A stretch of 64,000 nucleotides of DNA, from NCBI GenBank assembly GCA_001029735.1, contig CP011213.1:11709-75708 (forward strand), read 5' to 3'. The notes under the pieces were generated by a model. It was not told where the DNA came from. It saw only the letters and a program-made list of their open reading frames with translations, and ran no database searches. Position numbers and translations under genes: made by a program. Numbering within the stretch: the first letter of the stretch is position 1; every line of letters starts with the position of its first letter. Shown piece by piece: positions 19,980-64,000 of this stretch. The DNA comes from Berkelbacteria bacterium GW2011_GWE1_39_12 (GTDB lineage: Bacteria > Patescibacteriota > UBA1384 > UBA12157).

Positions 19980-20494
19980 TAATGATCTTTCTCGATTATG
20001 TTTTCGATCGCTGCCCAATTACTTTCACCTGTTTTGGGCAAAATGACCGTAATCTTGTCATCCGGCTTAGCCTTGAAATAAGAAACTGAAGCCTGCAAAA
20101 CGTTATATTTTTTACCGTCACAAGTCGCGATCCAATTCTCATCGTTCTGAGTTAATTTACCAATAATTCTTTTTCTTTCAACAGGACCTATTTGTTTAAA
20201 AATAAATGTTCCGTCAGGAGCAATGGTAAGTTTCAAGTTGTCACCGCAAACTAATTTTGACTTAGATGAATAATTGACTGGTACTGGATATTTCTTGCCA
20301 TATTTATCGATCATTTCCTCACCATCAAAAACACCTTCGATGATAGTAGCTTTACCAGTATCGTTTAAATTTAAACTTTCGGCTTGCTCTTGGTAAACTT
20401 GTTCAAACAAAATTCTTTTAGCGGCGTTAATCTTTTCTTCCGCTCCATCAAGTAACTTTCTGATTTCAGTTAACTTTTTGTCATCCTTGTCCAT
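19979..20494 (-). CDS. conserved CPR hypothetical protein
   Basis: IIEGVFDGEEMI..YPVPVNYSSKSKLV.GD.LKLTI motif; translationally coupled to the downstream ATPase. Confidence 0.75.
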   Translation of the reverse strand: MDKDDKKLTEIRKLLDGAEEKINAAKRILFEQVYQEQAESLNLNDTGKATIIEGVFDGEEMIDKYGKKYPVPVNYSSKSKLVCGDNLKLTIAPDGTFIFKQIGPVERKRIIGKLTQNDENWIATCDGKKYNVLQASVSYFKAKPDDKITVILPKTGESNWAAIENIIEKDH

Positions 20495-31174: not shown

Positions 31175-31879
31175 TTAGAATTTAATCAAATTGGCAATTG
31201 AACGAGCACTTTGGAACTTACGCAAAGCATAAACTCCGGTACCCGCAAGCGCTATAACGCTTGGCAATACCATGTCTGGACCTGTGCTTGGCAATTTCTT
31301 AGCCGAAGGGGTCTCAGAAATGATATTTTCCGGTAAACTAACGACATTGTTGTTTGCATTCGCGTTAGCGTTTGCATTCGAACCGCCGTTGCTATCAGAA
31401 CTTTCGTCGCTGGATCCACCGTTTTCGGTAGAGTTTCCAGCATTTGATTCAGCATTAGCATTAGCTTCAGCTGAACCAGAAGCGCTTCCGCTTCCAATGT
31501 TGATCACATTGTTGTTGGCGTTGGCATCGGCGTTGGAGTTAGCGTTGTTATTCACAACGGTTGATCCAATTGAGCCTTCGTCGTAACCACAACCATCACC
31601 ACATAAAATAGTGTGATCATTTTCTTGAATCATGAGGTCAGGTGATCCCGAATTTGATATGGAATCAGAATTGGCCTCGGATGAACCTTCTGCGCTACCA
31701 CTACCAATGTTTATGACATTGTTGTTGGCATTAGCATTAGAGTTGCTGTTGGAATTATTGTTAACAATAAGATCGTTAACAAATCCAGTAATCCAATCGG
31801 ATTCATGGGCACTAGCAACATTTGCTGAGCCAAGGATAAGCGCTGAAGAAAATAAGACTGTTAAAATGATGTTTCGCAT
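31175..31879 (-). CDS. secreted Asn/Ala/Ser-repeat protein with LPxTG sorting signal
   Basis: Signal peptide ending ASA, three N(A/S)N..NNNV(I/V) repeats, LPSTG followed by a TM segment and basic tail. Confidence 0.8.
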   Translation of the reverse strand: MRNIILTVLFSSALILGSANVASAHESDWITGFVNDLIVNNNSNSNSNANANNNVINIGSGSAEGSSEANSDSISNSGSPDLMIQENDHTILCGDGCGYDEGSIGSTVVNNNANSNADANANNNVINIGSGSASGSAEANANAESNAGNSTENGGSSDESSDSNGGSNANANANANNNVVSLPENIISETPSAKKLPSTGPDMVLPSVIALAGTGVYALRKFQSARSIANLIKF

Positions 31880-32035
31880 TTTAATCCTTTCTCTTTTAGC
31901 CTAATGCATTAGAAGGCTAAAAGACCTAAATTATTAAAGATTTCGACCAAATCTTCCGCTTTCAAATTACTTTGAAAGCAGGAGTTTGGGGGCCGACACG
32001 TAGTCGGCCCGACCAAGATCCCGAAGGATCTAATG

Positions 32036-32830
32036 TTAATTGCCGCTTCCTGCGGCACCGTTACCGTTGGCGACGGCCGCGCCTGTTGCGGATCCGTCCC
32101 CGATGTTAATGACGTTGTTATTCGCGTTGTCATTAACATTCGTATTACTGTTGTTGTTAACAACGTTGGCGTCTCCGCCTTTAACGTTGTTACAAATACT
32201 GATACTGGTATTCGATACCGGCACTGCCGATACCGAGAGCAGTTGCTGACTGTTGGTCTGCCACGGCGATTGACCGCCGATCTGACCACACATTACAGGC
32301 GCAGAAGAAAAGTAGTTGTTGGTCACATTTGTCACCGGCTGTACCGGCACCTCGTGAACAACTTTGGTTTCATGAACTACTTCAGTCTTTTCGTGAATGA
32401 CTTGTGTTTCATGTTCGCGGATCACTTCGGTCGGCTTGATCTTCACGATGACCTTCCGCTTGATACGGATGACCTTGTTGTTACAGGCCTTATGATTCTT
32501 GGCCGGCTTATGGATCCTCATTACTCCGTACTTGTCAGTGAAGAGAAATGTGCTTGCCATACCGGCTTTGATGTAGTCATACTGCTCACCTGTCTGACTA
32601 AGTTGTTCTGAAATTACTTCCAGCTCAGTCTGATCAAGAACTGCAAGAGTATACTGCCCTGGTGTTGTCATTTCCCAGGTTGTCATCTCTTGTGCCTTGA
32701 CGGTGGTTGCAGGAGCTACGCTAACTTCTTGCTGCGGAACTACGCCGACGACGACTACATCCTCGGCTGAAGCCATGGATGCGATCGCCAACATGACCAA
32801 TATCCCTGTCAGAGTTACTAATCGTTTCAT
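32036..32830 (-). CDS. secreted protein with VxHE repeats and C-terminal Asn-rich repeat
   Basis: Signal peptide; VIREHETQVIHEKTEVVHETKVVHEV; NNNSNTNVNDNANNNVINIGDG. Confidence 0.78.
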   Translation of the reverse strand: MKRLVTLTGILVMLAIASMASAEDVVVVGVVPQQEVSVAPATTVKAQEMTTWEMTTPGQYTLAVLDQTELEVISEQLSQTGEQYDYIKAGMASTFLFTDKYGVMRIHKPAKNHKACNNKVIRIKRKVIVKIKPTEVIREHETQVIHEKTEVVHETKVVHEVPVQPVTNVTNNYFSSAPVMCGQIGGQSPWQTNSQQLLSVSAVPVSNTSISICNNVKGGDANVVNNNSNTNVNDNANNNVINIGDGSATGAAVANGNGAAGSGN

Positions 32831-32831
32831 G

Positions 32832-33998
32832 CTACTTTACCTCCATCTCGAAGTTGATATCGTCACCGGGGCAAAGCCCCTTGGAACCGATCGATTCGAC
32901 TTCTGCGTAGATTTTTCCTTGGCTCGCGCTTGTAATCATAGCCGTGGCGGCCTCATAGCCCTTGCGGGTAAAAGTCACCTTCGCACCCTGCTTTATCCGA
33001 CCGTTTACCCTAATGGTGAAGGACGAATGGTCCAGCCCTGTAAGGATAAGGCGGTACTCACCACAGAGAACGTAAATCCTCTTTGATGATGGGGGACGAG
33101 CAACGATTGTCAGCTTGTTATCTGCAACAGCGTAACCATCAGACTTCATGTCGATCCTTGGCTTAGGTGTTTCCACTTTGGGCTGAGGCTGGACAATGGG
33201 TTTCGGTTCTGCAACGGGTGCAGGTTGAGGCTGTGCTACGGGTGTTTGCGACTGAACAATGGGTGCAGGAGCGGTCATCTGGTTCAAGGTTTGCCGCTGG
33301 GCATTCCTCATAGCCAAATAACCAGGATCCGGTAGCGCAGTCGTCGGCTGGAAAGCCGGCGAAAGCATTGAGCACCACTGCTCATCGGTGAAGTTCCAGC
33401 ATTCTTCAGGTGCACTCTGCACCAGAACCTGCTGGACCATACCGTTGGTCCGATTGGAAGTCCAGTTGAAAGGAAGGAAGACAACCGTTAGACGGTTTTT
33501 CTTATCCCGACTTGTAACTTTCCATTCAAACGCATAGCTACCAGGATCAAGATATGGAATCTCAACCTGATAACCTTTTAGTGCCTCTAGCTCGGCGAGC
33601 CAGCAAGTTGCACCATGATCGGGCGTCAGTTCGACCTTCACAACGTGTTCAACGTTGCTAAAATCGCTGTATGCTCGATACACAGGTGATTTTGCGGCTA
33701 CAGCATCTCGAAACATCGACTTGTTCATCACAAGCCGCGGGAACATGTTCGTGGATGAAAACCATGAAGTAATGGGTTGGTAGGTACGTTTGTACTCACT
33801 TCTTCCATCAGCTCCTAAGCATCTCTCGACGCTCTTTCGGCATGCATCCATTCTCGATCCCATCGAGACACCTGCGGCTGATTCCGTGAGTGTCACACCT
33901 CCGCCGACCGAAATGGCCGCATTGGCATAAACACTCTGAGTTACCGCCATGGTGGCGATAACTACTAGCAACATTGCGATAGTTAACGTGCGTCGCAT
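32832..33998 (-). CDS. secreted two-domain hypothetical protein with Pro/Gln linker
   Basis: Signal peptide, PQPQPAPVAEPKP-type linker; first gene of the operon. Confidence 0.75.
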   Translation of the reverse strand: MRRTLTIAMLLVVIATMAVTQSVYANAAISVGGGVTLTESAAGVSMGSRMDACRKSVERCLGADGRSEYKRTYQPITSWFSSTNMFPRLVMNKSMFRDAVAAKSPVYRAYSDFSNVEHVVKVELTPDHGATCWLAELEALKGYQVEIPYLDPGSYAFEWKVTSRDKKNRLTVVFLPFNWTSNRTNGMVQQVLVQSAPEECWNFTDEQWCSMLSPAFQPTTALPDPGYLAMRNAQRQTLNQMTAPAPIVQSQTPVAQPQPAPVAEPKPIVQPQPKVETPKPRIDMKSDGYAVADNKLTIVARPPSSKRIYVLCGEYRLILTGLDHSSFTIRVNGRIKQGAKVTFTRKGYEAATAMITSASQGKIYAEVESIGSKGLCPGDDINFEMEVK

Positions 33999-49544: not shown

Positions 49545-52500
49545 TTACTTTAAATTTTCTAAAATAGAGTAATAATCCACTGATTTCTGTATGCCTCGTT
49601 CATTCCAATTCACATTGACGTCGACTCTAACTGAAGAAGGGTTTCCAGCCGGGGCAACGATAATCGGTATAGTAGTAACATGGGGTGTAGCTGTCCCCTG
49701 TTCAATAATAAGTCTTGCAGTATACATATTGGCTGAGACATAAACAGTTGCCGGATTAGCAGGTGTAGAGATAGAGGTGACTGTGAAAGATTGGGCATTT
49801 GCCTTATATCCAGCATCGTTAACATCTAAATCGGTAAGCGGACCGCAGAAGTGACTAACATTACTAACACTGTTTTTTGCTCCACTAGTTATTGCAGAAT
49901 CCGGGCAATTCCACCAGAAAGAATAACTAATAGATCCAGTGGCTGTACTAGCAGAATCACGATTGGCAGTTAAAATAGTGGATAACGGCATAAAACCGGT
50001 TGAAGGAATTGCCGATAATGTAGCCGAAAGTGTTGTTGCCGATGCGGTATAATTAACACTCGTTGATGCCGTGCTGCTTTTTGTTCCTCTCTCAATATAT
50101 ACTCTAGGATTATAAGTTCCAGCATTATAAGTCGCAGTGTGCGATGCTGAAGAGTTTGAAGTGTTAATATTAGCCGCAAATGGCAATTGCCCACCACATT
50201 TCATCACCCCTGAAACATACCCCGGCGCCACACTGCAATCCATCCAAAAATAATAATTATATGTCTCACTGGTGAAGCCGGTTGAGGTTGGCGTTGCGGT
50301 TATATTCACATTCATTGGCGCAGGACCGGTTGAAGGCGCCGCTGTAATACCGACGGTCAAGGTTTGTGGTGGAGTAACGTACAAGATGACCTGTGCGCTT
50401 GTAAATTTTTCCCAGTTGTAATTGCAGAAAAGGGTAAAAGTATGAGCCTGTGTAATATTAGAAATTGTCGATGAACCGCTACTTGCCGGCGATGAGGTAT
50501 TCCAATTCCAATTACTTTCAGTAGGACTACCTGCGGTGTAACAAGTAGTGGCATTGCTTTGCGACCAATTTAATATCACCGACCCACCATAAGGAATTGT
50601 AATGGCAGGAGCATTTCCTGCGTCATCGGTGTTGGTTTTTTGGTTACTTGGATTACTGCTATCTATTTCCATCAAACTAACCGACGGAGTCACAGAAGCA
50701 CCAACATTAACATTCACGTTAGCATTGGCATTTCCCCCTGGACCCGTACAAGACATACTGTAAGAACGACTCGAAGTAAGATTCCCAGTTGACTCGCCGG
50801 TAGTATTGGAAGTTGCACGGCTGCCCGTCCATGAACCAGAAACAGTACAAGCGGTAGCATTGGATGTGGTCCATGTAAGATTCGCAGCCGTGTTGTACGA
50901 AATTGTTGTTGAACCAGAATGATTATTTGCTCTCAAATCAATTGTCGGGCCAGGTGCTGAACTGACAGTAACCGCAGGAGCCTGAACCGTTGCTCCTGTA
51001 TTTGAGTTATAAATGAATACAAAAGGATGCTTTGTCCCAGCTGTACTATATGTATAAGGAGCAAGATTATTAGTCGTCATATTCCAATAATTAATACCAT
51101 CACCGTTGTAAATGTGATATTCTGGCTGTTTATTACAAAAATTTGCACTACTGTACCAATCCTTTAATGTGCTCGCAGTATAATTGGCAAGTGACAGGTT
51201 TGTAGTCGTTGGTCCATTAGAACAATCTTCCCAATAATAATAGTTAAACCAATCGCCGTAAGAAGATGTAACGCTATCCAGATTGCCGGCAGAGGCAGTC
51301 AAATAAACATTTTGGCCGACTGAATAGCTTGATAAATCGCTGTGCAGATTGGCCGACATAGTAAATGGTGGTGGCGGTGAACCCACGTTCACATTTACAG
51401 TAGCAGTAGGACTGCTGCCACTAGAATTAGTACAATAAAGGCTATAAGATTTAGAGCTGGTCAAAGCACCTGTCGATTGAGAGCCAGAAACACTTTTAGC
51501 GCCCGACCAGCTGCCTGAAGCCGTGCAAGAGGTAGGATTATTTGTTGATGACCAAGCAAGGGTTGCAGCGGTATTGTATGGAATAGTAATTGTTCCAGTA
51601 TTACCATTTGCGGTTAAATTGACCGTTGGTGTCAAGATAGCGTCTACAGTTACTGTTGCGGAGGCATAATCAGCCAAGCCTCCCCTTTCCACTACGTAAA
51701 CTGGCGTATATGTTCCTGCACTTGTGTAAATATGATCCACAGCCCAACCCGTACTGGTTTGATTATCTTTTTTAAAACCTGTCACGGTAGTACTGTCGTT
51801 TGTCAAAGTACCACAGACTTTACTAACCGAAGTATAATCTTTAGCGGTAGCAGTAGCATAATTCGGACAATTCCACCAAAAACTAAAGTTGTAATTGCCT
51901 GTTTGATTTTGGCTAACACTTGATCCGGTAAGTTTTGTTGAAGTAGCAGTATTAACTGCAGAAGGTACAGCGGTTAATGCTGCGCTAAGTGATGGCACCG
52001 GCGTCGCTACTGCGGTGTTTAAAAAACCACTCGCTCCTGAAAAGTTGGCGCTGTAAGTAAAATCCTGTACTTTACCGCCCGTACATCGGTCGACGCTTCC
52101 GATCAATGTATTATGATAAAGCATTTCAGAATAAAGGGCGGCCGGCGTACTTGCAAAGGAAATGTTTGCGGAGATAGTACCCGTATTTGTTACCGTGTAG
52201 ACATGGGGACTTACATATGTAAGATTAACAAGTGAACTTTCACTGAAGTTCGTTGGAGAATTGACCGCAAAGTTTGTATACAAGGTACGCTCTAAACCAA
52301 TTGTATCAAAGCTCCCGGTTTCTGCCGTTGGGACCGAGCAACCTTGATCATTGCTTCCCCAATATCCGGATCGGCTATACTGACCCAGCACGCCAATAGT
52401 ATTAATGAGTGAACTATTATAATTGTAAGCTGCAGCATACCCGAAATGGTTTGAATCCGGATATAACGCAAACCCAGGATTAGAGCCTTGTAATGATTTA

Positions 52501-52823
52501 AAAACAATAGTGTCGCCTTTATAAATAGTGTTTCCACTTGCATCTTTTCCCGTATTGCCTGTAATCGAGATATCAGTACCATTAACACGATGATAGGCGC
52601 CAAAACCAAAAGTAAAACTCCCCTTAAAATCAAAAACGTTTGTCATATTTGTGCTGTCATAATAAGCCGTATCAGGCGATGTCCAGGTGGTCGATTTGTA
52701 ATATGGGTCAGCGTGAGCTTTGCCGAAACTTAAGAAAAATAATAAAGAAAAAGAAATCAAAATAAAAGTGCTTTTTCCAAAGAACATAAGTAATTTCATA
52801 GCTTTTGATTGGGATTGTATCAT
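49545..52823 (-). CDS. large secreted adhesin-like protein with PKD/Ig repeats and pilin-like C-terminal tag
   Basis: Signal peptide ending AHA; four FWWNC-type repeats; three W(S/T)xxN..C Ig-like repeats; C-terminus VRVDVNVNWNERGIQKSVDYYSILENLK. Confidence 0.82.
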   Translation of the reverse strand: MIQSQSKAMKLLMFFGKSTFILISFSLLFFLSFGKAHADPYYKSTTWTSPDTAYYDSTNMTNVFDFKGSFTFGFGAYHRVNGTDISITGNTGKDASGNTIYKGDTIVFKSLQGSNPGFALYPDSNHFGYAAAYNYNSSLINTIGVLGQYSRSGYWGSNDQGCSVPTAETGSFDTIGLERTLYTNFAVNSPTNFSESSLVNLTYVSPHVYTVTNTGTISANISFASTPAALYSEMLYHNTLIGSVDRCTGGKVQDFTYSANFSGASGFLNTAVATPVPSLSAALTAVPSAVNTATSTKLTGSSVSQNQTGNYNFSFWWNCPNYATATAKDYTSVSKVCGTLTNDSTTVTGFKKDNQTSTGWAVDHIYTSAGTYTPVYVVERGGLADYASATVTVDAILTPTVNLTANGNTGTITIPYNTAATLAWSSTNNPTSCTASGSWSGAKSVSGSQSTGALTSSKSYSLYCTNSSGSSPTATVNVNVGSPPPPFTMSANLHSDLSSYSVGQNVYLTASAGNLDSVTSSYGDWFNYYYWEDCSNGPTTTNLSLANYTASTLKDWYSSANFCNKQPEYHIYNGDGINYWNMTTNNLAPYTYSTAGTKHPFVFIYNSNTGATVQAPAVTVSSAPGPTIDLRANNHSGSTTISYNTAANLTWTTSNATACTVSGSWTGSRATSNTTGESTGNLTSSRSYSMSCTGPGGNANANVNVNVGASVTPSVSLMEIDSSNPSNQKTNTDDAGNAPAITIPYGGSVILNWSQSNATTCYTAGSPTESNWNWNTSSPASSGSSTISNITQAHTFTLFCNYNWEKFTSAQVILYVTPPQTLTVGITAAPSTGPAPMNVNITATPTSTGFTSETYNYYFWMDCSVAPGYVSGVMKCGGQLPFAANINTSNSSASHTATYNAGTYNPRVYIERGTKSSTASTSVNYTASATTLSATLSAIPSTGFMPLSTILTANRDSASTATGSISYSFWWNCPDSAITSGAKNSVSNVSHFCGPLTDLDVNDAGYKANAQSFTVTSISTPANPATVYVSANMYTARLIIEQGTATPHVTTIPIIVAPAGNPSSVRVDVNVNWNERGIQKSVDYYSILENLK

Positions 52824-52838
52824 TAATTACTCCGTTAT

Positions 52839-53477
52839 TTAATTTTGGGTAAATATTTTTTGAAGAAAATTAGCCGGGCTAGAAAGCTGAATACTGTTAA
52901 AAATGTTATTTGTATTTAAATTAGTATCAGTATCCTTTTGATTAAAATCAGAATAGAATTCCAAAACATATTTTCCTTGCTTGATAAATTTACCCTCACT
53001 TACAAAAGTTTCATCTTCATCTGTAAAGATTTTTGTCATCAAAATAAAATCCAACCCGTTCTCTTTCAAGGTGATAATTCCCGACTCTCCTTGTGTGTAC
53101 TTTATATAACTTTCTAAACTGTTTTTATCGAATGACCCTTTTTTTTGCGAAGCAGCGAATTTGTTGACATCAACAATTTTAACTTTAAAGGTGCTCGAAC
53201 CGGTAAAATTAAGTTGTTCTAAAACAGTGCCATTGAAACTTTTTACATCGGCTTTTTCTATTTTCCAATTTGTCGGATAACGGAAACTAAAGCCGTAATT
53301 ATTATTGCTATAGGTTTGCCAATCGGCAGGACCGGAAAAGCTAGTCGTTTTTACGTGAGAATCTTCTTTCACTTTCAGTTCATAACGCCAAATTAACAGG
53401 CTAGCCGTAATTAGAGCAATAATTATAAGTATAATTCCTATAATTTTTTTATTTTTTAGTATATTGGTCTCTGCCAT
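52839..53477 (-). CDS. membrane-anchored PsbP-like domain protein
   Basis: N-terminal TM; WQTYSNNNYGFSFRYPTNW motif. Confidence 0.7.
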   Translation of the reverse strand: MAETNILKNKKIIGIILIIIALITASLLIWRYELKVKEDSHVKTTSFSGPADWQTYSNNNYGFSFRYPTNWKIEKADVKSFNGTVLEQLNFTGSSTFKVKIVDVNKFAASQKKGSFDKNSLESYIKYTQGESGIITLKENGLDFILMTKIFTDEDETFVSEGKFIKQGKYVLEFYSDFNQKDTDTNLNTNNIFNSIQLSSPANFLQKIFTQN

Positions 53478-53585
53478 CCCACTCCTTTTTTAGAACTTTT
53501 AAATACAAACAAAAAAAACTGTCTTTATAAATACATTATAGAATAGACACAACCCTAATTCAAATAATGCTAATCAATAGATCGT

Positions 53586-55784
53586 CTAATTATTTAGATT
53601 TTCTAAAACCGAATAATAATCAACCGATTTAGGCTCACCCCGTTCATCCCAACCAACGTTAACATCAACTCTAATTGACGAAGGGTTTCCAGCCGGCGCA
53701 ACTGTAACATCGGCAGTAGCCACTTTAGCCAAAGACCCACGTTCAATAACAACAACTGTATGGTAAATGCCGGCGCCGGTATAGGCATGTAAAATTGGCA
53801 ATAAAGTTGTCGTAACGCCATCGTGCGTTTTATCACCTATATTAGGATTACCTAAAGGATTACCGCAAGCTGCGACAGTGGATGCATAATCAGAACCAGG
53901 AGTAGAACAATCCCACCAGAAGGTATAGTTAATACTACCAGTCATAGAGCCCCCAGTTGTTGCGGTCAATGTCGTGTTAAGAGGACTAAGTCCTGAAGAT
54001 GGCATAGCTATTAGTTCAGCCGTCAGCGTAGGAGTAGTATTTGCCGTGACAGCGACACGGCTTTCGGCAGATAAAGTACCGCGTTCTATAACCACTTTAA
54101 CCGTAAATATACCAACCGAACTGTATGAGGCCATTGTTTTTTTTGGAATATCCGTAACGCCATCAAATTTGGCTTGAGGACTGCCACAAGCAGCAAGCGT
54201 TGTCATGTAAGTCGTTGCGATACTATTACAATTCCACCAAAATGAATAGCTTATTGTTCCAGTAGCTGTGCCCCCTGGAATCGCTGTGAGTTCCGGACTA
54301 AACGTAATTGGCCCGCTTACAGGGTTGGCGACCAAACTGGCGGTTAAAGTTTGTGGTGCGCTCGTTACAGTGACAGTTGCTCGACTTTCCGCCGAGAGAG
54401 CACCGCGCTCGATGATAACTTTACCATAATACGCTCCAGCCGGTGTATAAGTATTTGTCGCCACTAGCAAAATATTACTTATTCCATCTTTTTTAAATCC
54501 GATTGTTGCCGTATGAGGATCACCGCAGGCTGTGACGGCAGCAGCATAGGTCATAGCCGTGCTATTACAATTCCACCAAAAAGAATAGTTTAAAGTTCCA
54601 GTAGCCGTTCCGCCCGCATTGGCAGTTAATGAAGTACCCAATGGCGCCGGGCCATTAGCCGGATTTGCCGACAAACTAGCAGTTAATGCAGGAGGTGTAA
54701 CAACTACATTGACATTCGCATTTGCATTAGAGTTTCCGTTAACGCAAGTTATGCTATACGATTTACTAGCTATTAAATTTCCTGTTGTCTGCGTTCCTGA
54801 AGTAGCAGTGCTCGTTGTCCATGCGGCATTGCAAGAAGTTGCATTACTTGAACTCCACGCTAAATTCGCTGAAGCATTATAAGCAATAGTAGTCGAACCT
54901 GACGAACCGTTGGCGGTTAAGGTTACAGTCGGTGCGGGCGGACTATTGACCGTGATTGTTGCTCTTTTTTCAGCAGTAAGGGATCCGCGTTCGATAATAA
55001 CTTTGCCGTAATAAGTACCGGCCGGTGAATATGAGTGAGATACTGTTTGTGGGTTAGCGCTAGTTCCATCAAACTTTGCTCCAATGGTTGAAGTATGAGG
55101 ATCACCGCAAGCCATGACAGTAGCAGCATAAGTCGAAGACGTACTATTGCAATTCCACCAAAATGAATAATTAATCGTACCAGTAACATTACCGCCTGGC
55201 GTTGCAGTTAAGGTTGTATTTAACGGCGACACCCCTGAATTTGGGTTGGCAGCAAGATTAGCTGTTAAAGACGGAGAATCCCATACCCAATCAGAAATAC
55301 CTTGCTTATGGTAATAATAAGTTGGGCCCGACATGTATGGCTGAGTGTAAGTTTTAAAATAAGCAGTCACCCGACCGTTAGAATCTGCTAACATAAACAT
55401 GCTTCCGTTAGCAAAAGCCTCGGCACCAGAACAAGTAGTATTGTATCCCATCGGGTCATATTCATCCGCCAAAAGCACGTTTGTTGGGCTAGTGACTTTT
55501 CCTTCAACCCTGTAAGAACGACAAGTTCCCGAAATACTAGTATGAATGATATAACTAAAAGTATTACCGTTCTTTAAGGTCATGCTGCCCCAAGTATCGG
55601 TAGGTACTAATTTTGATGAAGAATTGCTAACTGAGGTTTGATATTCGGAAAGAGAGCTCCCAACGATCGAGCCCCAAATTCCGCTGGCCGCCATAATTTT
55701 AGCAGGACGAGAAAAAACTGCTATTGTAAAAGAGACCAGCAAAATAGCGAAAAATATAGCAATTATAAAACGGTTTTTTTTCAT
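53586..55784 (-). CDS. secreted adhesin-like protein with four PKD-like repeats and pilin-like C-terminal tag
   Basis: Signal peptide; four Y(S/T)FWW(N/D)C...IERG repeats; C-terminus IRVDVNVGWDERGEPKSVDYYSVLENLNN. Confidence 0.82.
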   Translation of the reverse strand: MKKNRFIIAIFFAILLVSFTIAVFSRPAKIMAASGIWGSIVGSSLSEYQTSVSNSSSKLVPTDTWGSMTLKNGNTFSYIIHTSISGTCRSYRVEGKVTSPTNVLLADEYDPMGYNTTCSGAEAFANGSMFMLADSNGRVTAYFKTYTQPYMSGPTYYYHKQGISDWVWDSPSLTANLAANPNSGVSPLNTTLTATPGGNVTGTINYSFWWNCNSTSSTYAATVMACGDPHTSTIGAKFDGTSANPQTVSHSYSPAGTYYGKVIIERGSLTAEKRATITVNSPPAPTVTLTANGSSGSTTIAYNASANLAWSSSNATSCNAAWTTSTATSGTQTTGNLIASKSYSITCVNGNSNANANVNVVVTPPALTASLSANPANGPAPLGTSLTANAGGTATGTLNYSFWWNCNSTAMTYAAAVTACGDPHTATIGFKKDGISNILLVATNTYTPAGAYYGKVIIERGALSAESRATVTVTSAPQTLTASLVANPVSGPITFSPELTAIPGGTATGTISYSFWWNCNSIATTYMTTLAACGSPQAKFDGVTDIPKKTMASYSSVGIFTVKVVIERGTLSAESRVAVTANTTPTLTAELIAMPSSGLSPLNTTLTATTGGSMTGSINYTFWWDCSTPGSDYASTVAACGNPLGNPNIGDKTHDGVTTTLLPILHAYTGAGIYHTVVVIERGSLAKVATADVTVAPAGNPSSIRVDVNVGWDERGEPKSVDYYSVLENLNN

Positions 55785-55801
55785 AATTTAAGATTAACAA
55801 A

Positions 55802-57106
55802 TTAAGGTGTTGGGCGGATTGCGATTCCGATCGGTTTAGGAATACCTGGAAACGACCAAGTATCTAGCAGGTTTATCGAACTTCCATTGACGGCATATCG
55901 AATAATTTGTTGTTCACTATCATTTACGAGATAAAGATTACCATCGGCGCCAATGACGGTTTGCTCAACGCCATTTGCATTTGTAAGAAAAGATCCTTGG
56001 CGGTCTAGATTTTTATTGAAAGTAATAATTTTGACTTTAGGATTTGAACTTACAGACACATAAACCACATCTCCTGCAATCACAACGGATTCCGGAGGAC
56101 CATCGGCTGAAGAAATAGCTTTCGTAAGCGGATTAGTCAAATCTGCATCAAATCTGCTGATATGACCATTAGAAGCTACTAGATCGCTATCAGTAACATA
56201 AACTTTCCCTTCCGGACTAACGGCGACTTGATTAATGTAATTAGTCACAGGAATTGAAAGTGTTACAGAAGCATCACATTTACCCGTATCTAAACGGCAT
56301 CGCTGAACTCTTGGGACCTGATCAGTAATATACATATAATCGCCAAAGATGGTTATGCCTTCCGGATGATTAAATTCATCCAACGCATTTCCTGAATCAG
56401 TCGCTGCAGAATTAGATGTTGTATTCCAAGCGCCGTTAGCACCTTTCCCTATCCAGCCTTTAAAATCTAGATTCCGACCAGTATTATCATAAAGATATTT
56501 TGCGATTCTGTGATTACCGCCGTCTGCTACATAAAGGTTGCTTTTATTATCGATTTTAATGTCTACAGCAATACAGTCAGGATTTTTTAACTTGGTTGCA
56601 GCGTAATTAAAAGATTTAATCTCTCTACCGCGCTCGTCTAATACGTAAATTGCTTTTTCACTATTAGTTGAATTGACTTGATTATTACTCACGAAGATAT
56701 CTTGTCTTATGCCAACTGGCGAAAATTTGATTTTAACATTATAAGTAGTGTTACCTAAGGACATAGGAAATGATGATTGGTCAGCTATCTGCGAAACCGC
56801 CCAAACTCCGGCTGTATTATTTAATCTATATGATTTCGTGTAATCAGAAATTAGATCTAAAAAGTCACTATAGCCAGTTGAGCTGCCTAAAAGCTTGGCA
56901 TCACGCGCCGATTTCACTTTATTGATCTGTCCTTCAGCTATATTAGTAGCAGTTTGTTGATGTTTAGTGTAAGCAGCTAATCGAATATTCAGCACCTCAA
57001 CGCCAACAGCACCGCCAAGGACTAGAAGTAAAATTCCAATAGCAACCAATAATTCGACAAGTGTAAAACCCTTTGATTTTATTTGGGAAAACCCGTATTT
57101 TTCCAT
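55802..57106 (-). CDS. PilV-like minor pilin fused to NHL/beta-propeller
   Basis: G|FTLVE class III signal; ATNIAEGQINKVKSARD helix; LYVADGGNHRI, FNHPEGI, VAVSPEGKVYVTD. Confidence 0.85.
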   Translation of the reverse strand: MEKYGFSQIKSKGFTLVELLVAIGILLLVLGGAVGVEVLNIRLAAYTKHQQTATNIAEGQINKVKSARDAKLLGSSTGYSDFLDLISDYTKSYRLNNTAGVWAVSQIADQSSFPMSLGNTTYNVKIKFSPVGIRQDIFVSNNQVNSTNSEKAIYVLDERGREIKSFNYAATKLKNPDCIAVDIKIDNKSNLYVADGGNHRIAKYLYDNTGRNLDFKGWIGKGANGAWNTTSNSAATDSGNALDEFNHPEGITIFGDYMYITDQVPRVQRCRLDTGKCDASVTLSIPVTNYINQVAVSPEGKVYVTDSDLVASNGHISRFDADLTNPLTKAISSADGPPESVVIAGDVVYVSVSSNPKVKIITFNKNLDRQGSFLTNANGVEQTVIGADGNLYLVNDSEQQIIRYAVNGSSINLLDTWSFPGIPKPIGIAIRPTP

Positions 57107-57118
57107 AATTAATTTCTC

Positions 57119-57481
57119 CTATGAACCTATCTGAGTTACTTTACCGGTCGAAACATCATATCTAAATCCCATGTAGCTATTTTTAAATTTAGCTTTTGAC
57201 TCAACAGAACCACTGCAAACTTTGACGTCTGCTTCGCCTTCTGCCGGATTTGATTGATTTATATAAAATTTCATCGAAGTAGTACAAGAGGTGAAATGGC
57301 CTACAATTTGTTCAACTATCCCCCACTCTAATCCGCTCTGAGCCACTTGTCTTACTTGAGTTGTTTCGTCAGCCTTTCTTGCGATGGAAATACTGGCGAA
57401 GGAAGATGCACCAATGGCTATAATCGTGGTACTGATCAAAGCGACTAATAGGACGACATAAATTAATGCAAAACCTTTCAA
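57119..57481 (-). CDS. PilX-like minor pilin (lacks Glu5), minimal size
   Basis: G|FALIY, AQSGLEWG. Confidence 0.75.
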   Translation of the reverse strand: MKGFALIYVVLLVALISTTIIAIGASSFASISIARKADETTQVRQVAQSGLEWGIVEQIVGHFTSCTTSMKFYINQSNPAEGEADVKVCSGSVESKAKFKNSYMGFRYDVSTGKVTQIGS

Positions 57482-57494
57482 ACTTACTCCTTAA

Positions 57495-58097
57495 CTAAAA
57501 CTTACTTACAGTGCCATAATTCAAAGTATAAGTATTTTCCATGGTACTTGTAGTCGTATTTTTTTTATCTTGTGCAACTACGCTAATGTATAAATAGGGA
57601 GAATTTTTGAGTCCTGTCTCATAATCTTTCGTTTCAGATGTGTTTCCAAACCCATTATCAAAAGTCATAATATCTATACTAGATGGAGAAAGCTGTTGAC
57701 CAGTAGAGGCTATACCTGTAGCCGATTCTGGATAAGTTGCACTACAGGTCGAAACCGACTTTGTATACAAAGCGGTACCGGACTTGGCTAGATAATTGCA
57801 ACCAGTTCCATCATTGCTACCAAAAACAACCAAGTTTGCATTTATCACGCGAAAACCATAAATCGTATTCCCGCCGACTGCAACTTTACCAGCACTGTTC
57901 ATTTGGCCATTAACATAGCTAAAGACCGAATTCAGGTTTTTGTTTAAATTATAAGTGTTCGCCGACTGAGTTCTGCCGGTAATAAATCCTACAAGTAAAG
58001 ATGATGAGCCAATTAGGATGATCATACTAAAAATGAATATAACTACCATTAATTCTGTTAAGCTAAAAGCTTTACTAAATTTAGTTTTTCTTAACAT
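57495..58097 (-). CDS. PilW-like minor pilin
   Basis: A|FSLTELMVVI. Confidence 0.8.
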   Translation of the reverse strand: MLRKTKFSKAFSLTELMVVIFIFSMIILIGSSSLLVGFITGRTQSANTYNLNKNLNSVFSYVNGQMNSAGKVAVGGNTIYGFRVINANLVVFGSNDGTGCNYLAKSGTALYTKSVSTCSATYPESATGIASTGQQLSPSSIDIMTFDNGFGNTSETKDYETGLKNSPYLYISVVAQDKKNTTTSTMENTYTLNYGTVSKF

Positions 58098-58524
58098 CGA
58101 CGCTCCCATTTTGAAAAACATTTACTTTATAACTTTCACCAGTTGGACCAGTTAAAACAAGTGATTTTTTAGCCGTTTGTCCGCTGGCATTGAAAGAAAT
58201 TGGACCGCCACTAATAGTAATGCTCGATGGCAAAGTTGATTCAAAAATCCGTGCACCCAAAGCGGAATTTTCAGTTACAGTTAACTTTTTCGTTGGTGAC
58301 GTAATTACATTTACCCATACCGAGCTAACCCCCATGTTCTTAGGTGAAATAGCGTAGCTTCTAGCCCTCAAGATAGTGTCACTTGTTTTCTGTGCAGCAA
58401 CTTGAACGTCTCTGACTTTTCGGACTGTGTAATATGAGGAAAATGATAACGCGCCCAATATACCTACAATACCAATTACAACCATCATTTCAGCTAGCGT
58501 AAAGCCTTTTGAAGTTTTCATCAT
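58081..58524 (-). CDS. FimT/FimU-like minor pilin
   Basis: G|FTLAEMMVVI, RARSYAI, ISFNASG. Confidence 0.82.
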   Translation of the reverse strand: MMKTSKGFTLAEMMVVIGIVGILGALSFSSYYTVRKVRDVQVAAQKTSDTILRARSYAISPKNMGVSSVWVNVITSPTKKLTVTENSALGARIFESTLPSSITISGGPISFNASGQTAKKSLVLTGPTGESYKVNVFQNGSVDVKKN

Positions 58525-59327
58525 GAACCCATCCCCAAGCTATTTAAATACCATTTGATAATTTGATCACCCCAAAAGATTGCCACGTAACCACCTATTA
58601 TTAAGAACGGCGCAAAAGGCACCATGTCTTTCATTGTTTTTTTTCTAGAAAAAATGAGGGCTAAGCTAATTACACTGCCTAGAGCAAAAGCGGCAAAGGT
58701 GGCAAGTAATACATTTGGCCAAAAACTAATAGCTCCTAGCAAAAAACCAAGTTTTATATCCCCTATCCCCATCCATTTTTCCCAAGAAACTAAAACAATC
58801 AAGCCTAAAAATCCGCCTAAAGCTAATCCGCCATAAAGAGAACTTAAAATAATCGGCAATGATTGCTGAATAAAAAAATAATCAACCACCAAATAAATTA
58901 CCCATAAACCAATTGATAACCAAATTAAAAAATCAGCAATTAAGAAATGTAAAATATCATAAGTTAAAACAACCATCAAAATCGATGAAATAATGAGCAA
59001 GACAGCAAATTCTAAACTAAAACCAAATTTCCAAAAAAGCAAAGCGAAAATCAGTGCCGTCGCTAATTCAACCAATGGATACTGAACAGAAATTGGCTTT
59101 TTACAAAATCTGCATTTGCCTGCCAATAATACAAAAGAAAAAAATGGGAATAAATCATACCAATGTAGTTGTTTTTTGCATTCTGGACAATGGGATCTAG
59201 TTTTTATGACTGATCGTAAATCATCAAACCGCAAAATTATTACATTCAAAAAAGAACCGATTATAAGACCAAAGATTGCTACAATAATGTAATCAAAATA
59301 AACATTAACAAGCATAGTTTCTTTCAA
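58521..59327 (-). CDS. pilD: prepilin peptidase
   Basis: GSFLNV, RSHCPEC..KCRFC, YPLVE, MGIGDIKL, VPFAPFL. Confidence 0.95.
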   Translation of the reverse strand: MKETMLVNVYFDYIIVAIFGLIIGSFLNVIILRFDDLRSVIKTRSHCPECKKQLHWYDLFPFFSFVLLAGKCRFCKKPISVQYPLVELATALIFALLFWKFGFSLEFAVLLIISSILMVVLTYDILHFLIADFLIWLSIGLWVIYLVVDYFFIQQSLPIILSSLYGGLALGGFLGLIVLVSWEKWMGIGDIKLGFLLGAISFWPNVLLATFAAFALGSVISLALIFSRKKTMKDMVPFAPFLIIGGYVAIFWGDQIIKWYLNSLGMGS

Positions 59328-59461: not shown

Positions 59462-60031
59462 CTAATCACTGCTACACAACCTGTGAGCGCTACTATTTAA
59501 AGTATTAGTTGGACCATCATTGCTCGTGTAAATTCCAGCGTTACCAAAAGAATCAACACAGAACCAGTTACTGTAATCGAACGGCGATAATTTTGCCCAG
59601 GCAGCATACTGATTATTGTTAGCCCAGATTGTTAAACCGGAAGCAGTAGCTGTACATCCCTTATTCAAATTGCAAATATCAGAGGCTATCTTATTAATAG
59701 CTGATGTAGCATCCGCGTCACCTGTCACAGTCTTTGATGTGCATGGAATAAAATCAGTACCAGCGGCAGTAAAGCAAGTGTCAACATGAGCCCCACCTGC
59801 TCCAACACCGGGTCCAAGAGAATATTTTCCTACACGATCGTAGTGGTTTTGCATAACAATTGACATCTGCCGAACATTACTTATGATTCTTGTGTCCTTC
59901 GTTTTAGTTCTAGTCCTGCTTAATGCCGTTAAAATCATCGTGGACAAGATTCCAATAATTGCGATAACGACCAAAAGCTCGATCAAAGTAAAGCCATTCG
60001 ACAAAAACCTAGGTTTTGATAATTTGTTCAT
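59462..60031 (-). CDS. type IV pilin
   Basis: G|FTLIELLVVIAIIGIL, FCVDSFG; aaggag SD before ATG 60031. Confidence 0.9.
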   Translation of the reverse strand: MNKLSKPRFLSNGFTLIELLVVIAIIGILSTMILTALSRTRTKTKDTRIISNVRQMSIVMQNHYDRVGKYSLGPGVGAGGAHVDTCFTAAGTDFIPCTSKTVTGDADATSAINKIASDICNLNKGCTATASGLTIWANNNQYAAWAKLSPFDYSNWFCVDSFGNAGIYTSNDGPTNTLNSSAHRLCSSD

Positions 60032-60100
60032 AAAAACTCCTTTTTTTCTCAAGGAATCACCTTATTGGAGATATCTCATTCAATAAGGTGATCTTCTTGA

Positions 60101-60514
60101 TTAAAGCGGGGTTCCACCAGAAAGTATACCAGCTGCGCAAGTAGCGCCTTTCATCGTCTGGCCGGCATCAGATACAGATACAGTTGTGCCATCGTTCAAT
60201 GTAGCAATTGCACAATAATTTACAGAAGGGGCAGCGCTTTTAGTCAAAGCATAAGCGCTTGAAGCATTCTGCGCAAGAATATCGGCAGTGTAGTTTGTGT
60301 ATCCTGTTTGGGTCGCTATGTTATTATAGTTCCCATCAGTACTATATGCTGTTTCTGCAAGAACTCTAATTTGCGCAATGTCTGCTTTAATTCTCGAATC
60401 TTTTGCTTTAGCTCTAGCCGTGTTTAAAGCAACCAAAATCATAGCGGCTAAAATACCAATAATAGCGATGACGACCAACAATTCAATTAAAGTAAAACCT
60501 TTTTTTAATTTCAT
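60101..60514 (-). CDS. type IV pilin (probable major pilin)
   Basis: KKG|FTLIELLVVIAIIGILAA..ARAKAKD. Confidence 0.9.
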   Translation of the reverse strand: MKLKKGFTLIELLVVIAIIGILAAMILVALNTARAKAKDSRIKADIAQIRVLAETAYSTDGNYNNIATQTGYTNYTADILAQNASSAYALTKSAAPSVNYCAIATLNDGTTVSVSDAGQTMKGATCAAGILSGGTPL

Positions 60515-60571
60515 TTTTTCCCTTATATTTAATTCACCAGTCATTCGACCAGATGACTTGTTTTTCAACTA

Positions 60572-61669
60572 TTACTCAAGATTAGCTTGCGCCAAAGAAT
60601 AAATTGGCCAGATGATAGAAAAGACAAGAAAACCGACTCCAATTCCGACAATCACAATAATTACAGGTTCAACCAAACTTGATAGACTCTTAATCCTCGT
60701 GTCAGTTTCTCTTTCATAATATTCTGCCAGCTTTGTCAAAACCGGGCCAATTTTTCCAGTTTGTTCACCCACCATAATCATTTCCGACACTACTGGAGGA
60801 AAGTTTTTATCTTTTTGCAGCGGCACCGACATTGGGATACCTCTTTCAACCTGCGCAGCAACATCTTTTAAGCTCTTTGTATATATATGGTTTTGGATCA
60901 CATCGGCTGAAATGGCGATTGTTTCCATAATCGGAATGCCGGCTTGAATCAACATGGACATGGTACGGCAAAAACGAGCCATATAGATCATGGTATAAAG
61001 TTCTCTTGCAATCGGCAAATGAATCTTAAATTTATCCCAGGTGCTACCACCTTCTTTGGTTCTAATAAAATAGGAAAAACCTGCAACTATGGCTATCAAC
61101 ACTATCACATCTAGCCACCAAAACTTAACTGTAAAATTGGAAACAGCAATAATCATTCTGGTAGCCAAAGGTAATTCAACGTTCATATCAGCAAAAACGC
61201 TTTTAAGCTGAGGCACAATAAAAATCATCATTAAGAAGATAATGACAACCATTGTAATAACGATAAAAGCCGGGTAGTACATAGCGGCTTTAATTTTCGA
61301 GTTGAATTCTTCGGTGAGTTCGAGTCGATCTGCCAACTGATTTAAAACTAAATCTAATTTACCGCTATTTTCACCCGATCGAACTATAGCAATAAAGACA
61401 GGATCAAAAATTTTGTTGTATTTAGAAAGGGAAAAAGAAAGACTGTTCCCCTGCTCAAGATCTGTCACAATACCCAAATAGGCTTTTTTCAATGTTTGTT
61501 TCTGGGCCTGAGAAGAAAGTATTCTAAAAGATTGATCTATAGCCAAACCAGCGCCAAGCATTGTCGCGAGCTGACGAGCTAAAACCGCTTTATCCTTACC
61601 GCCAACGCGGGAAAATAAATCCGTCTGAAGCGCCTGTAGATTTAGTTTCAAAAATCCCTCCTCTAACAT
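60572..61669 (-). CDS. pilC: type IV pilus platform protein PilC
   Basis: RQLATMLGAG, GENSGKLD, AMYYP, GEQTG, VEP. Confidence 0.93.
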   Translation of the reverse strand: MLEEGFLKLNLQALQTDLFSRVGGKDKAVLARQLATMLGAGLAIDQSFRILSSQAQKQTLKKAYLGIVTDLEQGNSLSFSLSKYNKIFDPVFIAIVRSGENSGKLDLVLNQLADRLELTEEFNSKIKAAMYYPAFIVITMVVIIFLMMIFIVPQLKSVFADMNVELPLATRMIIAVSNFTVKFWWLDVIVLIAIVAGFSYFIRTKEGGSTWDKFKIHLPIARELYTMIYMARFCRTMSMLIQAGIPIMETIAISADVIQNHIYTKSLKDVAAQVERGIPMSVPLQKDKNFPPVVSEMIMVGEQTGKIGPVLTKLAEYYERETDTRIKSLSSLVEPVIIVIVGIGVGFLVFSIIWPIYSLAQANLE

Positions 61670-61738
61670 AATAAGAACATAACCAATACTACATAACTAA
61701 GTATATCAACACAAAAAAATTAATTCAATAAATGAAAA

Positions 61739-62806
61739 TTAATATACCATCATTTTAAATGCTTTCGGATCGATTGCCCAGGCCAAAGCATTGTCAATTG
61801 TGATTTCACCTTTGGAGACTAATTCCGCCAGCACTTTATCCATGGCAATCATACCTTCGGCAGCGGAAGTTTGAATGACGTTTGGCAATTGGTGAGTTTT
61901 GCCTTCACGAATAATGGCTCTAACGGCTGAATTGGCAATCATAATTTCACAGGCAACAACACGACCGCCTTGCGTCCTAGGTAATAATCTTTGAGAAACA
62001 ACACCAAGCAAAACATTGGCAAGCTGCATCCTAACCTGTTGTTGTTGGTGAGGTGGAAAAACATCAATAATACGATCGGCGGTCTGAGAAGCTGAGTTGG
62101 TGTGTAAAGTGGCAAAAACTAGGTGACCGGTTTCTGCAATCGTGAGTGCAGCTTCAATAGTTTCTAAATCGCGCATTTCACCGACCAACACAACATTTGG
62201 ATCTTCACGTAATGAAGAACGCAATGCCCGAGCAAAAGAATTGGTATCAGAACCAACTTCTCTTTGTGAAATAATAGATTTATCATGCTCAAAAACATAT
62301 TCGATCGGATCTTCAATTGTGACAATATGCTCACTACGAGTATGGTTAATTTGGTTGATCATTGCGGCCAATGTAGTCGACTTACCATGCCCAGTCGGAC
62401 CGGTAATAATAACGAAACCCTGGGATGGTGTCGTAAATTTTTCCAAAATCGGCGGGACACCAAGATCGGTTAAACTTTTGATTAGTTTTGGAATTAAGCG
62501 CAACGAAGCGGCCATGTTACCTTTTTGGAAATAAACATTCGAACGAAAGCGCATGTCATTATAGCCAAAGGAAAAATCCACTTCCTTGCGAACCTTCAAT
62601 CTCTCAATTTGTTCAGCACTCATAAAACTTTGGATCAGACTCGAAGCCTGCTCCGATGTTAAATTAGCTTGGTCTGGCACTGCCATTAATGCACCATCAA
62701 TTCTAATCATCGGCGGTACACCGGTAGTTAAATGCAAATCTGATGCTTTTTTTTGAATAGAAAGGTCTAATAAACTTTTCATTTCTGGGATTAGTCCAAC
62801 CTGCAT
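61739..62806 (-). CDS. pilT: type IV pilus retraction ATPase PilT
   Basis: GPTGHGKSTT, TIEDPIE, SLREDP, GEMRD, TLHTN, AIIRE. Confidence 0.95.
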   Translation of the reverse strand: MQVGLIPEMKSLLDLSIQKKASDLHLTTGVPPMIRIDGALMAVPDQANLTSEQASSLIQSFMSAEQIERLKVRKEVDFSFGYNDMRFRSNVYFQKGNMAASLRLIPKLIKSLTDLGVPPILEKFTTPSQGFVIITGPTGHGKSTTLAAMINQINHTRSEHIVTIEDPIEYVFEHDKSIISQREVGSDTNSFARALRSSLREDPNVVLVGEMRDLETIEAALTIAETGHLVFATLHTNSASQTADRIIDVFPPHQQQQVRMQLANVLLGVVSQRLLPRTQGGRVVACEIMIANSAVRAIIREGKTHQLPNVIQTSAAEGMIAMDKVLAELVSKGEITIDNALAWAIDPKAFKMMVY

Positions 62807-62826
62807 AGATCCTCCTTTTAACAAAA

Positions 62827-64000
62827 TTAACTGCTTGTCGTTACTCTTAAAACTTCGCCAACGGTCGTCTCCCCTTTGATAGCCTTAATTAAACCGTCCT
62901 GCTTTAATGTTATCATTCCCTCGGCAACGGCTTGGTGTGCAATTTCTGATGCCGGACGTTTCTTAATGGCTAATTCTTCGATTTTATCGGACATACTTAA
63001 GACTTCATAAATACCCATTCGTCCTGAATACCCATGGTCACATTCGGAACAACCTTGACCTTCGTAAAATTTATATGGTTTTTGCAAATTAAATTTAGCT
63101 AATTCTTTTTCAATATCTATTCTGAAGACTTCTGGTAATGCCACTTCTTTTTTACATTTTTGACAGAGTTTTCGAACCAAACGCTGCGCCACTATTACAT
63201 TAACTGAAGAAGTAATTAAGAAAGGCTCAATCCCCATATTAATTAATCGCGGCAAGGCGCCGGCGGAATCATTGGTGTGAAGAGTCGATAACACCAAATG
63301 ACCGGTTAAAGCCGCATGTGTTGCCATTCCAGCCGTTTCGGAGTCACGAATTTCTCCAACCATAATAATATTAGGATCTTGTCTTAGGACACTTCTTAAC
63401 CCTTCAGCAAAGGAAAAACCGATTTTTGGCTTAACTTGGCATTGATTGATACCCGGGATTTCGTATTCGACTGGATCTTCGAGAGTAATAACGTTTACTG
63501 ACGGACTGCTTATTTTTTTCAAAATTGAATACAAAGTCGTCGATTTGCCCGAACCGGTCGGGCCTGTAGCTAAAATAACACCATAAGGCTTAATAATATT
63601 TTCTTCTAAAACCTTTAAGTTGTGGCCTTTGATACCAAGCTGCTCAAAAGAATAGATATTTTGGGTTTTGTCTAATAAACGCAAAGCTGCTTTTTCACCA
63701 CGAACAGTTGGTAAAGTTGAAACACGAATATCAATTTCATGCCCGTGAGTTTTCACATCGAACCTTCCGTCCTGAGGAATTCGTTGTTCATCGATCTTCA
63801 GTCTTGAGAGAATTTTTATTCTTGAGATGAGCGCTGGCTGTAACTCGATCGGCATCTTAATGACATCGCGTAAAACACCGTCAACGCGAAAACGTATTCT
63901 TAGCTCGTCTTCTTCTGGCTCAACGTGAATATCGGAAGCCTTTTTTAGCACAGCCAAAGCTACAGTTGCCGCTAAGATTTTGGGCACATTCCCAGTTTGA
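62827..64000 (-). CDS. pilB: type IV pilus assembly ATPase PilB (5' part outside window)
   Basis: ASDIH, PQDGR, GPTGSGKSTT, LRQDP, AQRLVRKLC..C..C..C. Confidence 0.95.
   Translation of the reverse strand, partial: QTGNVPKILAATVALAVLKKASDIHVEPEEDELRIRFRVDGVLRDVIKMPIELQPALISRIKILSRLKIDEQRIPQDGRFDVKTHGHEIDIRVSTLPTVRGEKAALRLLDKTQNIYSFEQLGIKGHNLKVLEENIIKPYGVILATGPTGSGKSTTLYSILKKISSPSVNVITLEDPVEYEIPGINQCQVKPKIGFSFAEGLRSVLRQDPNIIMVGEIRDSETAGMATHAALTGHLVLSTLHTNDSAGALPRLINMGIEPFLITSSVNVIVAQRLVRKLCQKCKKEVALPEVFRIDIEKELAKFNLQKPYKFYEGQGCSECDHGYSGRMGIYEVLSMSDKIEELAIKKRPASEIAHQAVAEGMITLKQDGLIKAIKGETTVGEVLRVTTSS

Follow-up and report, generated by a model that had tools for sequence, protein, structure and literature searches.

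A PilV-type minor pilin without its C-terminal hairpin, and secreted proteins tagged with a homologous hairpin, in a type IV pilus locus of Berkelbacteria

The DNA analysed here is a stretch of 64 000 nucleotides (the window) from Berkelbacteria bacterium GW2011_GWE1_39_12 (contig CP011213.1, positions 11 709 to 75 708). It carries a type IVa pilus locus in which PilB, PilT, PilC, PilD and pilins were all recognized by family-model search, minor pilins of the H, J and K types being encoded together with an I-type (PilI/PilV) pilin in the order H-J-K-I after pilD (table 1). At the end of this locus, all on the minus strand, lie the I-type pilin of 434 amino acids and two genes for large secreted proteins of 732 and 1092 amino acids, three open reading frames (ORFs) that an original prediction, made from the letters alone, had placed correctly. 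The subject of this work is the relation between the three: the pilin lacks the C-terminal β-hairpin of its relatives, and both secreted proteins end in a short tag resembling that hairpin.

Table 1. Features of the pilus locus, in window coordinates.
Feature	Position	Strand	Basis
PilC platform, PilT retraction ATPase, PilB	60572..63987	-	Cut-off passed by PilT; strong matches for PilC and PilB that do not reach it
Pair of candidate major pilins (196 and 155 aa)	59462..60568	-	Family-model search
Prepilin peptidase PilD	58521..59327	-	A24_N_bact E 1e-33
PilH/FimT-type minor pilin	58081..58524	-	ComGD and GspH matches below cut-off
PilJ/PilW-type minor pilin	57495..58121	-	Gene order and size
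PilK/PilX-type minor pilin, no Glu5	57119..57481	-	GspK E 7e-6, below cut-off; terminal strand apparently kept
PilI/PilV-type minor pilin without β2-β3 hairpin, with NHL β-propeller, 434 aa	55802..57106	-	
Mature pilin part (helix, α-β loop, β1; mature residues 1-119), predicted acceptor	56711..57067	-	
NHL β-propeller, joined where the hairpin would start	55805..56710	-	PF01436 above cut-off
732-aa secreted protein: N-terminal hydrophobic segment, β-rich domain, Cys-containing PKD-like repeats, C-terminal tag	53586..55784	-	PKD_4 below cut-off
Tag 1, 38 aa, homologous to PilV β2-β3 hairpin	53589..53702	-	
212-aa PsbP-like protein, N-terminal membrane segment, no tag	52839..53477	-	
1092-aa secreted protein: other N-terminal domain, PKD-like repeats paralogous to those of the 732-aa protein, C-terminal tag	49545..52823	-	
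Tag 2, 37 aa	49548..49658	-	

The 434-amino acid protein has a prepilin N-methylation motif at residues 10–33, a class III signal peptide with Glu5, a residue invariant in the alignment, and NHL repeats at residues 180–204 (Pfam). Its matches to the NCBIfam models PilV TIGR02523 (E 1e-3, 19.5 bits, cut-off 52.2) and GspI TIGR01707 (E 1.6e-3, 18.9 bits, cut-off 44.35) are weak. The ORF, the motif and the repeats all agree with the earlier description of a pilin that has no terminal pilin strands and continues as an NHL propeller. An intact relative from genome G010, modelled at a predicted local distance difference test (pLDDT) score of 91, has a long helix and a three-stranded antiparallel sheet (strands at 107–117, 125–136 and 139–150), the last two strands forming the tag-like segment. 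When this model was compared with known structures by VIA-align, XcpV (Z 9.1, root mean square deviation 2.7, 84 residues aligned), GspK (8.8) and EpsI (8.7) came out on top, tied; Foldseek against the PDB returned nothing at E ≤ 0.001. From Glu5, the gene order and the structural matches of the intact relative, we infer that the window protein is an I-type pilin cut between β1 and β2: its chain holds only the long helix and β1 of the fold, and β2 and β3 sit on the tags. A single-sequence AlphaFold2 model of the window pilin was uninformative (pLDDT 40).

No other I-type pilin lacking the hairpin was found in the genome, where two more pilins of this type keep theirs, leaving one acceptor for two donors, as we call the tagged proteins. 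Two further type IV pilus loci lie outside the window, one with a 660-amino acid modular I-type pilin that carries a long extension at its C-terminus in addition to a cis hairpin (G000:C1:486884-488866, plus strand; G000 is the genome of the window), the other with a plain I-type pilin of 132 amino acids (G000:C1 238691-239089, plus strand). An acidic residue at mature position 24 (columns 23–24 of alignment A5) is common to the split PilV proteins and their closest cis relatives, is missing from the other I-type pilins of the class, and is a possible subfamily marker.

Each of the two secreted proteins has one N-terminal hydrophobic segment and no match to the prepilin N-methylation model, in line with the ordinary signal peptides proposed for them, the cleavage sites being judged by eye. 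Their C-terminal tags are identical at 30 of 37 positions, the figure given originally, and no third copy was found in the 915-kb genome. Fourteen of the 30 identical residues differ in codon, and the synonymous and non-synonymous divergences (dS 1.11, dN 0.13) indicate that the tag is under purifying selection, with dN/dS about 0.11; selection on the peptide had been claimed from the synonymous differences. The N-terminal domains of the two donors are unrelated, as had been described, but the paralogy of their last 500 or so amino acids (36–39% identity) had been missed. Residues 590–1091 of the 1092-amino acid protein align with residues 250–730 of the other at 36% identity; in this window, therefore, the tag is carried by paralogues. 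Conservation between the two is 81 per cent in the tag versus 39 per cent in the shared repeats. Their C-terminal halves consist of PKD-like repeats, and no match to the PilC/PilY1 propeller was found in either (Pfam, NCBIfam). The same Cys-containing PKD-like repeat occurs in P0012, a prepilin-motif protein of 1020 amino acids, in the manner of cargo grafted directly on a pilin.

The origin of the tag was examined with a profile built solely from the tags of nine secreted proteins and run on 162 genomes of the class. Of the 25 matches, 9 are the tags used for training, 13 are C-termini of intact pilins, 2 fell by chance in a non-pilin enzyme, and 1 is a tagged secreted protein, from G007, that had been held out. 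One column brings the tags into register with the tails of 39 cis-hairpin pilins; it is occupied by Trp in 9/9 tags and 35/39 pilins. Compared with a profile of intact PilV, the tag profile matched columns 157–189 of 192 with a probability of 96.6 per cent (E 5e-10), a figure that is partly circular and somewhat inflated, as some intact-PilV rows were recruited by tag matches; the probability against a PilK profile was 0.15 per cent. Searches of the hairpin profile against PDB sequences and NCBIfam gave nothing meaningful. On these sequence comparisons, the tag is homologous to the β2–β3 hairpin that ends intact PilV proteins.

The distribution of tags and truncated pilins was compared in the order, sampled by 12 genomes of which 11 could be scored (the locus of G004 was not found). 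PilV stops after β1 and lacks the hairpin in six of the 11 (G000, G001, G002, G007, G008 and G009); in the five relatives of the window genome it is a stand-alone protein of 109–149 amino acids. Tagged proteins with a signal peptide lie just downstream in 6/6 of these split genomes, numbering 2, 2, 3, 1, 1 and 1 in the order given. G007 is outside both training sets. Split loci have their minor pilin genes arranged as H-J-K-I. The hairpin is in cis in G003, G005, G006, G010 and G011, and a tagged non-pilin protein was found in 0/5 of them. The survey proposed with the original prediction thus came out in its favour, and the tagged proteins of known context, far from being unlinked to truncated pilins, always lie beside one.

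There are 10 donors in these genomes. The tag is C-terminal in six, internal in one and straight after the signal peptide in three, all from G002; among the bodies are an NHL-type propeller, regions of Gly-rich and PKD-like type, a vWA-like part recognized by eye and, in G008 and G009, almost nothing, the donors there having 77–79 amino acids. A Gly-rich body of the same type occurs in two donors of different families (L004:1224-3431 and L069:4550-6754), the one from G001 adding a Cys-rich domain of about 110 amino acids after the tag. The small donors L006:6167-6406, L008:5385-5618, P0027 and P0070 have in common a short Pro-rich and then aromatic or hydrophobic segment between signal peptide and tag. 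The propeller of the window pilin shows a marginal likeness (E 0.003) to the tagged propeller of G001, for which no common origin is claimed. In G008, two untagged secreted proteins (237 and 85 amino acids, no Pfam match; L006:5172-6155) lie between the truncated PilV and the 79-amino acid donor, comparable to the untagged PsbP-like gene of the window.

In both window donors the tag directly follows a PKD-like repeat, a position that would suit a strand completing the last such repeat in the same chain, or a sorting signal with no relation to pilins. The tag also occurs at mature N-termini and on tiny peptides, however, so it cannot be the last PKD strand, and it is found on chains that have no PKD repeat. 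A homologue search with the donor C-terminus gave eight repeat-sharing proteins, of which 0/8 end in the tag, and the tag is homologous to the C-termini of pilins. The N-terminal and stand-alone donors largely refute this explanation, which we regard as the least probable of those considered.

A tag acting like the C-terminal strand of PilC/PilY1, by addition to PilK/PilX, would follow the established way in which secreted adhesins are attached to type IVa tips (PMC13533445, PMC13711793). The tag is, however, two-stranded, some 35 amino acids long and possible at the N-terminus, and it matches PilV, not PilK. Moreover, there is no need for a role on K like that of PilY1, because PilK ends in the same strand-like motif in all six split loci and in one of the two cis loci aligned; the donors, too, track the truncation of PilV. 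Attachment to PilK is accordingly very unlikely.

Relatives in which the two halves are joined were also found. G010 also holds a PilV with a vWA domain exactly between β1 and the hairpin, and P0026 is a fusion whose head is 56 per cent identical to the truncated PilV of G008 and whose tail matches that of the 79-amino acid donor of G008 at 13 of 19 residues. A database search with a profile of five truncated pilins, in which query and length window favour truncated forms, gave 35 relatives of 55–251 amino acids; the hairpin is absent in 32 (five from genomes already counted) and kept in three. The representative search gave 16 matches, of which P0020, P0024 and P0025 were dropped as repeat artefacts, and the final search with the tag brought in nothing beyond P0070 and a pilin-like match at E 3.4. 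A pattern scan for related loci found none with the pilin head in genomes and 16 generic pilin loci in metagenomes, the latter taken only as far as profile scores; one pattern-scan locus, with P0027, was discarded as an unrelated chance match.

A broader hairpin profile was run on a sample of 401 genomes of the phylum. Four of its 131 matches are known tags; of the other 127, 41 were inspected, including all 19 in frames of more than 300 amino acids, and 41/41 are pilins with a cis hairpin. No trans tag was found outside this order in the genomes searched, which is not proof of absence. The trans form is thus found solely in this order and in four proteins that lack context, the named relatives being labelled Berkelbacteria (Patescibacteria) by their sources. 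Pilins that bear vWA, propeller or Ig-like cargo in cis are frequent among the genomes sampled from the phylum. In L009 (G006:C23) and L010 (G005:C1), from genomes where PilV is intact, pilD is followed by long tandem arrays of about nine and four pilin genes, perhaps a further means of diversifying the pilus.

In a tree of 42 rows, in which the window row is a long branch, the split or fused state changes at least three times (5–6 times in bootstraps), and the approximately unbiased test rejects one common clade of split forms (p-AU 1.6e-7). This alternation would fit a relic of gene fission, or shufflon-like cassettes re-fused by DNA recombination, with no complementation between proteins. 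The codons hint at copying of more recent date: identical codons are used at 15 of the 29 degenerate identical residues of the tag (expected 0.40), compared with 45 of 158 in the shared repeats (expected 0.35). On the other side, each donor has its own N-terminal hydrophobic segment, the tag evolves under the constraint described above, and N-terminal tags, as fused cassettes, would lose their signal peptide. There is no recombinase-sized ORF in the pilus locus, judged by the ORF list of the window. Contigs of two public DNA runs from one study matched the assembly: no letter differed, there were neither indels nor joints, and the passage from the pilin stop into the next gene is spanned by single contigs; this is weak evidence, as one run is possibly the source of the window and contigs drop rare variants. 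We consider such a relic or cassette system improbable. The comparative evidence supports well a tip pilin that is real, conserved and repeatedly split or re-fused, with portable hairpin donors, so far in one clade.

The interaction itself was modelled, as had been suggested with the original prediction, from mature pilin residues 20–119 and tag 1, each as a 31-row alignment, in three runs. The score was 0.64 versus 0.09 for the best of three controls, with contact agreement of at least 93 per cent and partner pLDDT of at least 71; the score mark, which 116 of 157 solved complexes and 2 of 215 mismatches attain, applies roughly here, as the alignments were the analyst's own. In the model, pilin residues 109–116, in β1, run antiparallel to tag residues 11–18, and the interface comprises pilin residues 29–55 and 107–119, the tag also packing on helix 29–55 as in the intact pilin. 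Tag residues 14–16 touch helix residues 40–44, and lower tag numbers track higher helix numbers, a weak hint that the propeller junction and both ends of the hairpin are directed away from the membrane. With the hairpin ends on the same side, cargo could sit before the tag, after it or both, which would explain its varied position. The model supports binding of pilin and tag and does not show it.

We therefore favour, at a probability of roughly 0.7, a PilI/PilV pilin split after β1 whose sheet is predicted to be completed in trans by the donor-borne hairpin, hanging one tagged protein on each pilus tip. That separate secreted proteins carry the missing hairpin of the pilin, the core of the original prediction, has come through on homology, co-occurrence, fused relatives and the complex model; the words 'adhesin' and 'swapping without DNA rearrangement' are inferences. 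In the proposed sequence of events, the donors would be exported by Sec and their signal peptides cleaved (two signal peptidase I genes are present), and the membrane-anchored half-pilin would capture a donor before assembly, β2 of the tag pairing with β1 of the pilin and packing on its helix. The completed I-subunit would be needed before an I-J-K tip forms; once I joined J and K, each pilus would carry one donor at its tip, for which several donors would compete at the single acceptor. An adhesive role of the cargo may be supposed from the domain types and the lifestyle.

Several points weigh against this reading. The six split genomes are kin and not independent events, and hence no p-value is attached to the co-occurrence. 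The four tagged proteins P0021, P0022, P0027 and P0070 lack genomic context, as do 27 further truncated pilins, some of which are on short contigs and possibly cut by contig ends. No ligand-binding family was recognized in the cargo of the window donors: the 1092-amino acid protein has no Pfam name and its N-terminus gave nothing usable from the Atlas, and the Atlas matches for the 732-amino acid protein fall below the naming bar. The pass of the complex model may reflect likeness to intact pilins, because the alignments held halves of intact PilV and GspI-type structures have been solved; the tool itself cautions that a pass is to be expected for the two halves of a split gene, and the model comprises pilin part and tag, with no propeller, cargo or J and K subunits, so that crowding at the tip is outside its scope. 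Finally, three donors, those of G008 and G009 and P0027, carry almost no cargo, so adhesion is not the sole purpose.

These bare-peptide donors imply that completion of the fold matters in itself, and they lend weight to a variant in which the hairpin completes the pilin for the licensing of assembly or for membrane tethering, the cargo being incidental or held on an unassembled membrane pilin. The sole donors of G008 and G009 are peptides of about 78 amino acids. Furthermore, Neisseria PilI and PilJ are obligate partners in a heterodimer (PMC13533445), and assembly would plausibly be held up by an I-subunit that is not complete. What speaks against this variant is that eight of the 10 donors with known context have sizeable bodies, NHL, vWA-like, PKD-like and Gly-rich regions among them, and that, throughout the phylum, domains of this kind sit in cis, at the same two places, on intact pilins. 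It is unlikely, though the most plausible of the alternatives.

Display of cargo at the tip may have a wider meaning. For host recognition by Patescibacteria, type IV pili are the leading candidates (PMC11623550). Tentatively, and at somewhat less than even odds, a clade of Patescibacteria may have made the hairpin a portable plug: a tag of about 35 amino acids at either end would mount secreted proteins, the donors would compete, and donor availability would both vary the host-binding tip and license assembly, with no DNA rearrangement. On the favoured reading, one lineage would have a sequence-readable rule for secreted proteins that ride on the pilus tip, and candidate host-recognition proteins could be listed from genomes. 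Strand complementation at the tip would be extended from the K to the I subunit. The forms found would make an evolutionary series, from intact pilins and those with an inserted cis domain, through splits that have either cargo or a bare peptide, to re-fused or independently intact ones, which bears on the origin of non-pilin tip adhesins, and the short tag with its small acceptor could serve as a natural tag-catcher pair.

Completion of an incomplete β-fold by the strand of a partner is well known from chaperone–usher pili, whose subunits have Ig-like folds and polymerize by strand exchange. CPR (candidate phyla radiation) Pam pili are donor-strand pili too (PMC13278184). Both resemble the system described here in that a partner strand completes the fold, and differ in being Ig-like strand-exchange polymers; here the fold is that of a type IV pilin and the partner a one-to-one tip adaptor. 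In the R64 shufflon, PilV combines a constant pilin N-terminus with alternative C-terminal adhesins switched by DNA inversion. Unlike these, the donors here are co-oriented genes with signal segments of their own, and no joint was seen in contigs.

The closest parallel is PilC/PilY1, which supplies PilK with a single strand from its C-terminus, other systems having forms of K with an insertion in cis (PMC13533445); Kingella PilC1/PilC2 show the same strand addition (PMC13711793). There, as proposed here, the sheet of a minor pilin is completed in trans at the tip by a non-pilin protein that Sec exports, and there are paralogous donors. The predicted acceptor here is the I-subunit and not K, PilK being apparently complete; the donor element is a two-stranded hairpin of about 35 amino acids as against one strand of 6–12; and the tag may be N-terminal, internal or C-terminal, with no shared PilC/PilY1 propeller. 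The split-pilin system would work like PilC/PilY1 strand addition, but outside that family. A term search of PMC13533445 found no mention of Patescibacteria, Geobacter, a split or a hairpin.

A split major pilin, PilA-N/PilA-C, is known in Geobacter sulfurreducens (PMC10710030, PMC11046646), where two gene products likewise build one pilin. There, the helix is cut from the whole globular domain and has one partner of 104 amino acids; here a minor tip pilin is cut between β1 and β2, with up to three alternative cargo-bearing partners. Modular minor pilins with grafted adhesive domains include PilB/PilC of S. sanguinis (PMC10191384) and PilX2 of Saccharibacteria (PMC11623550); vWA, propeller and Ig-like cargo is similarly presented from a tip pilin, but in the present case it comes from a gene of its own and would be held non-covalently by strands belonging to the pilin fold. 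Interchangeable tips are described for Tad pili (PMC12075869). A literature search covering few subscription papers, and leaving out the supplementary tip-complex models of PMC13533445, found no split I-type pilin with a portable two-strand donor. Since strand addition at pilus tips and a split pilin are already known, the idea is less unprecedented than the original prediction implied.

The remaining observations concern the locus and the rest of the window. At the edge of the window, the ORF listed for PilB begins at an internal start. Counts of promoters and terminators are no higher than in shuffled sequence (29 versus 34.5 and 7 versus 9.4). Two large membrane ATPase-like proteins are encoded on the minus strand at 16992-20018 and 20634-23129, the second with weak matches to the TraD coupling protein; they possibly belong to a Patescibacteria type IV secretion system. 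At 31175-33998, also on the minus strand, there are three secreted proteins with no strong Pfam match, two of which share Asn-rich low-complexity repeats; the one of 234 amino acids ends in what we take to be a sortase-like motif followed by a hydrophobic tail.

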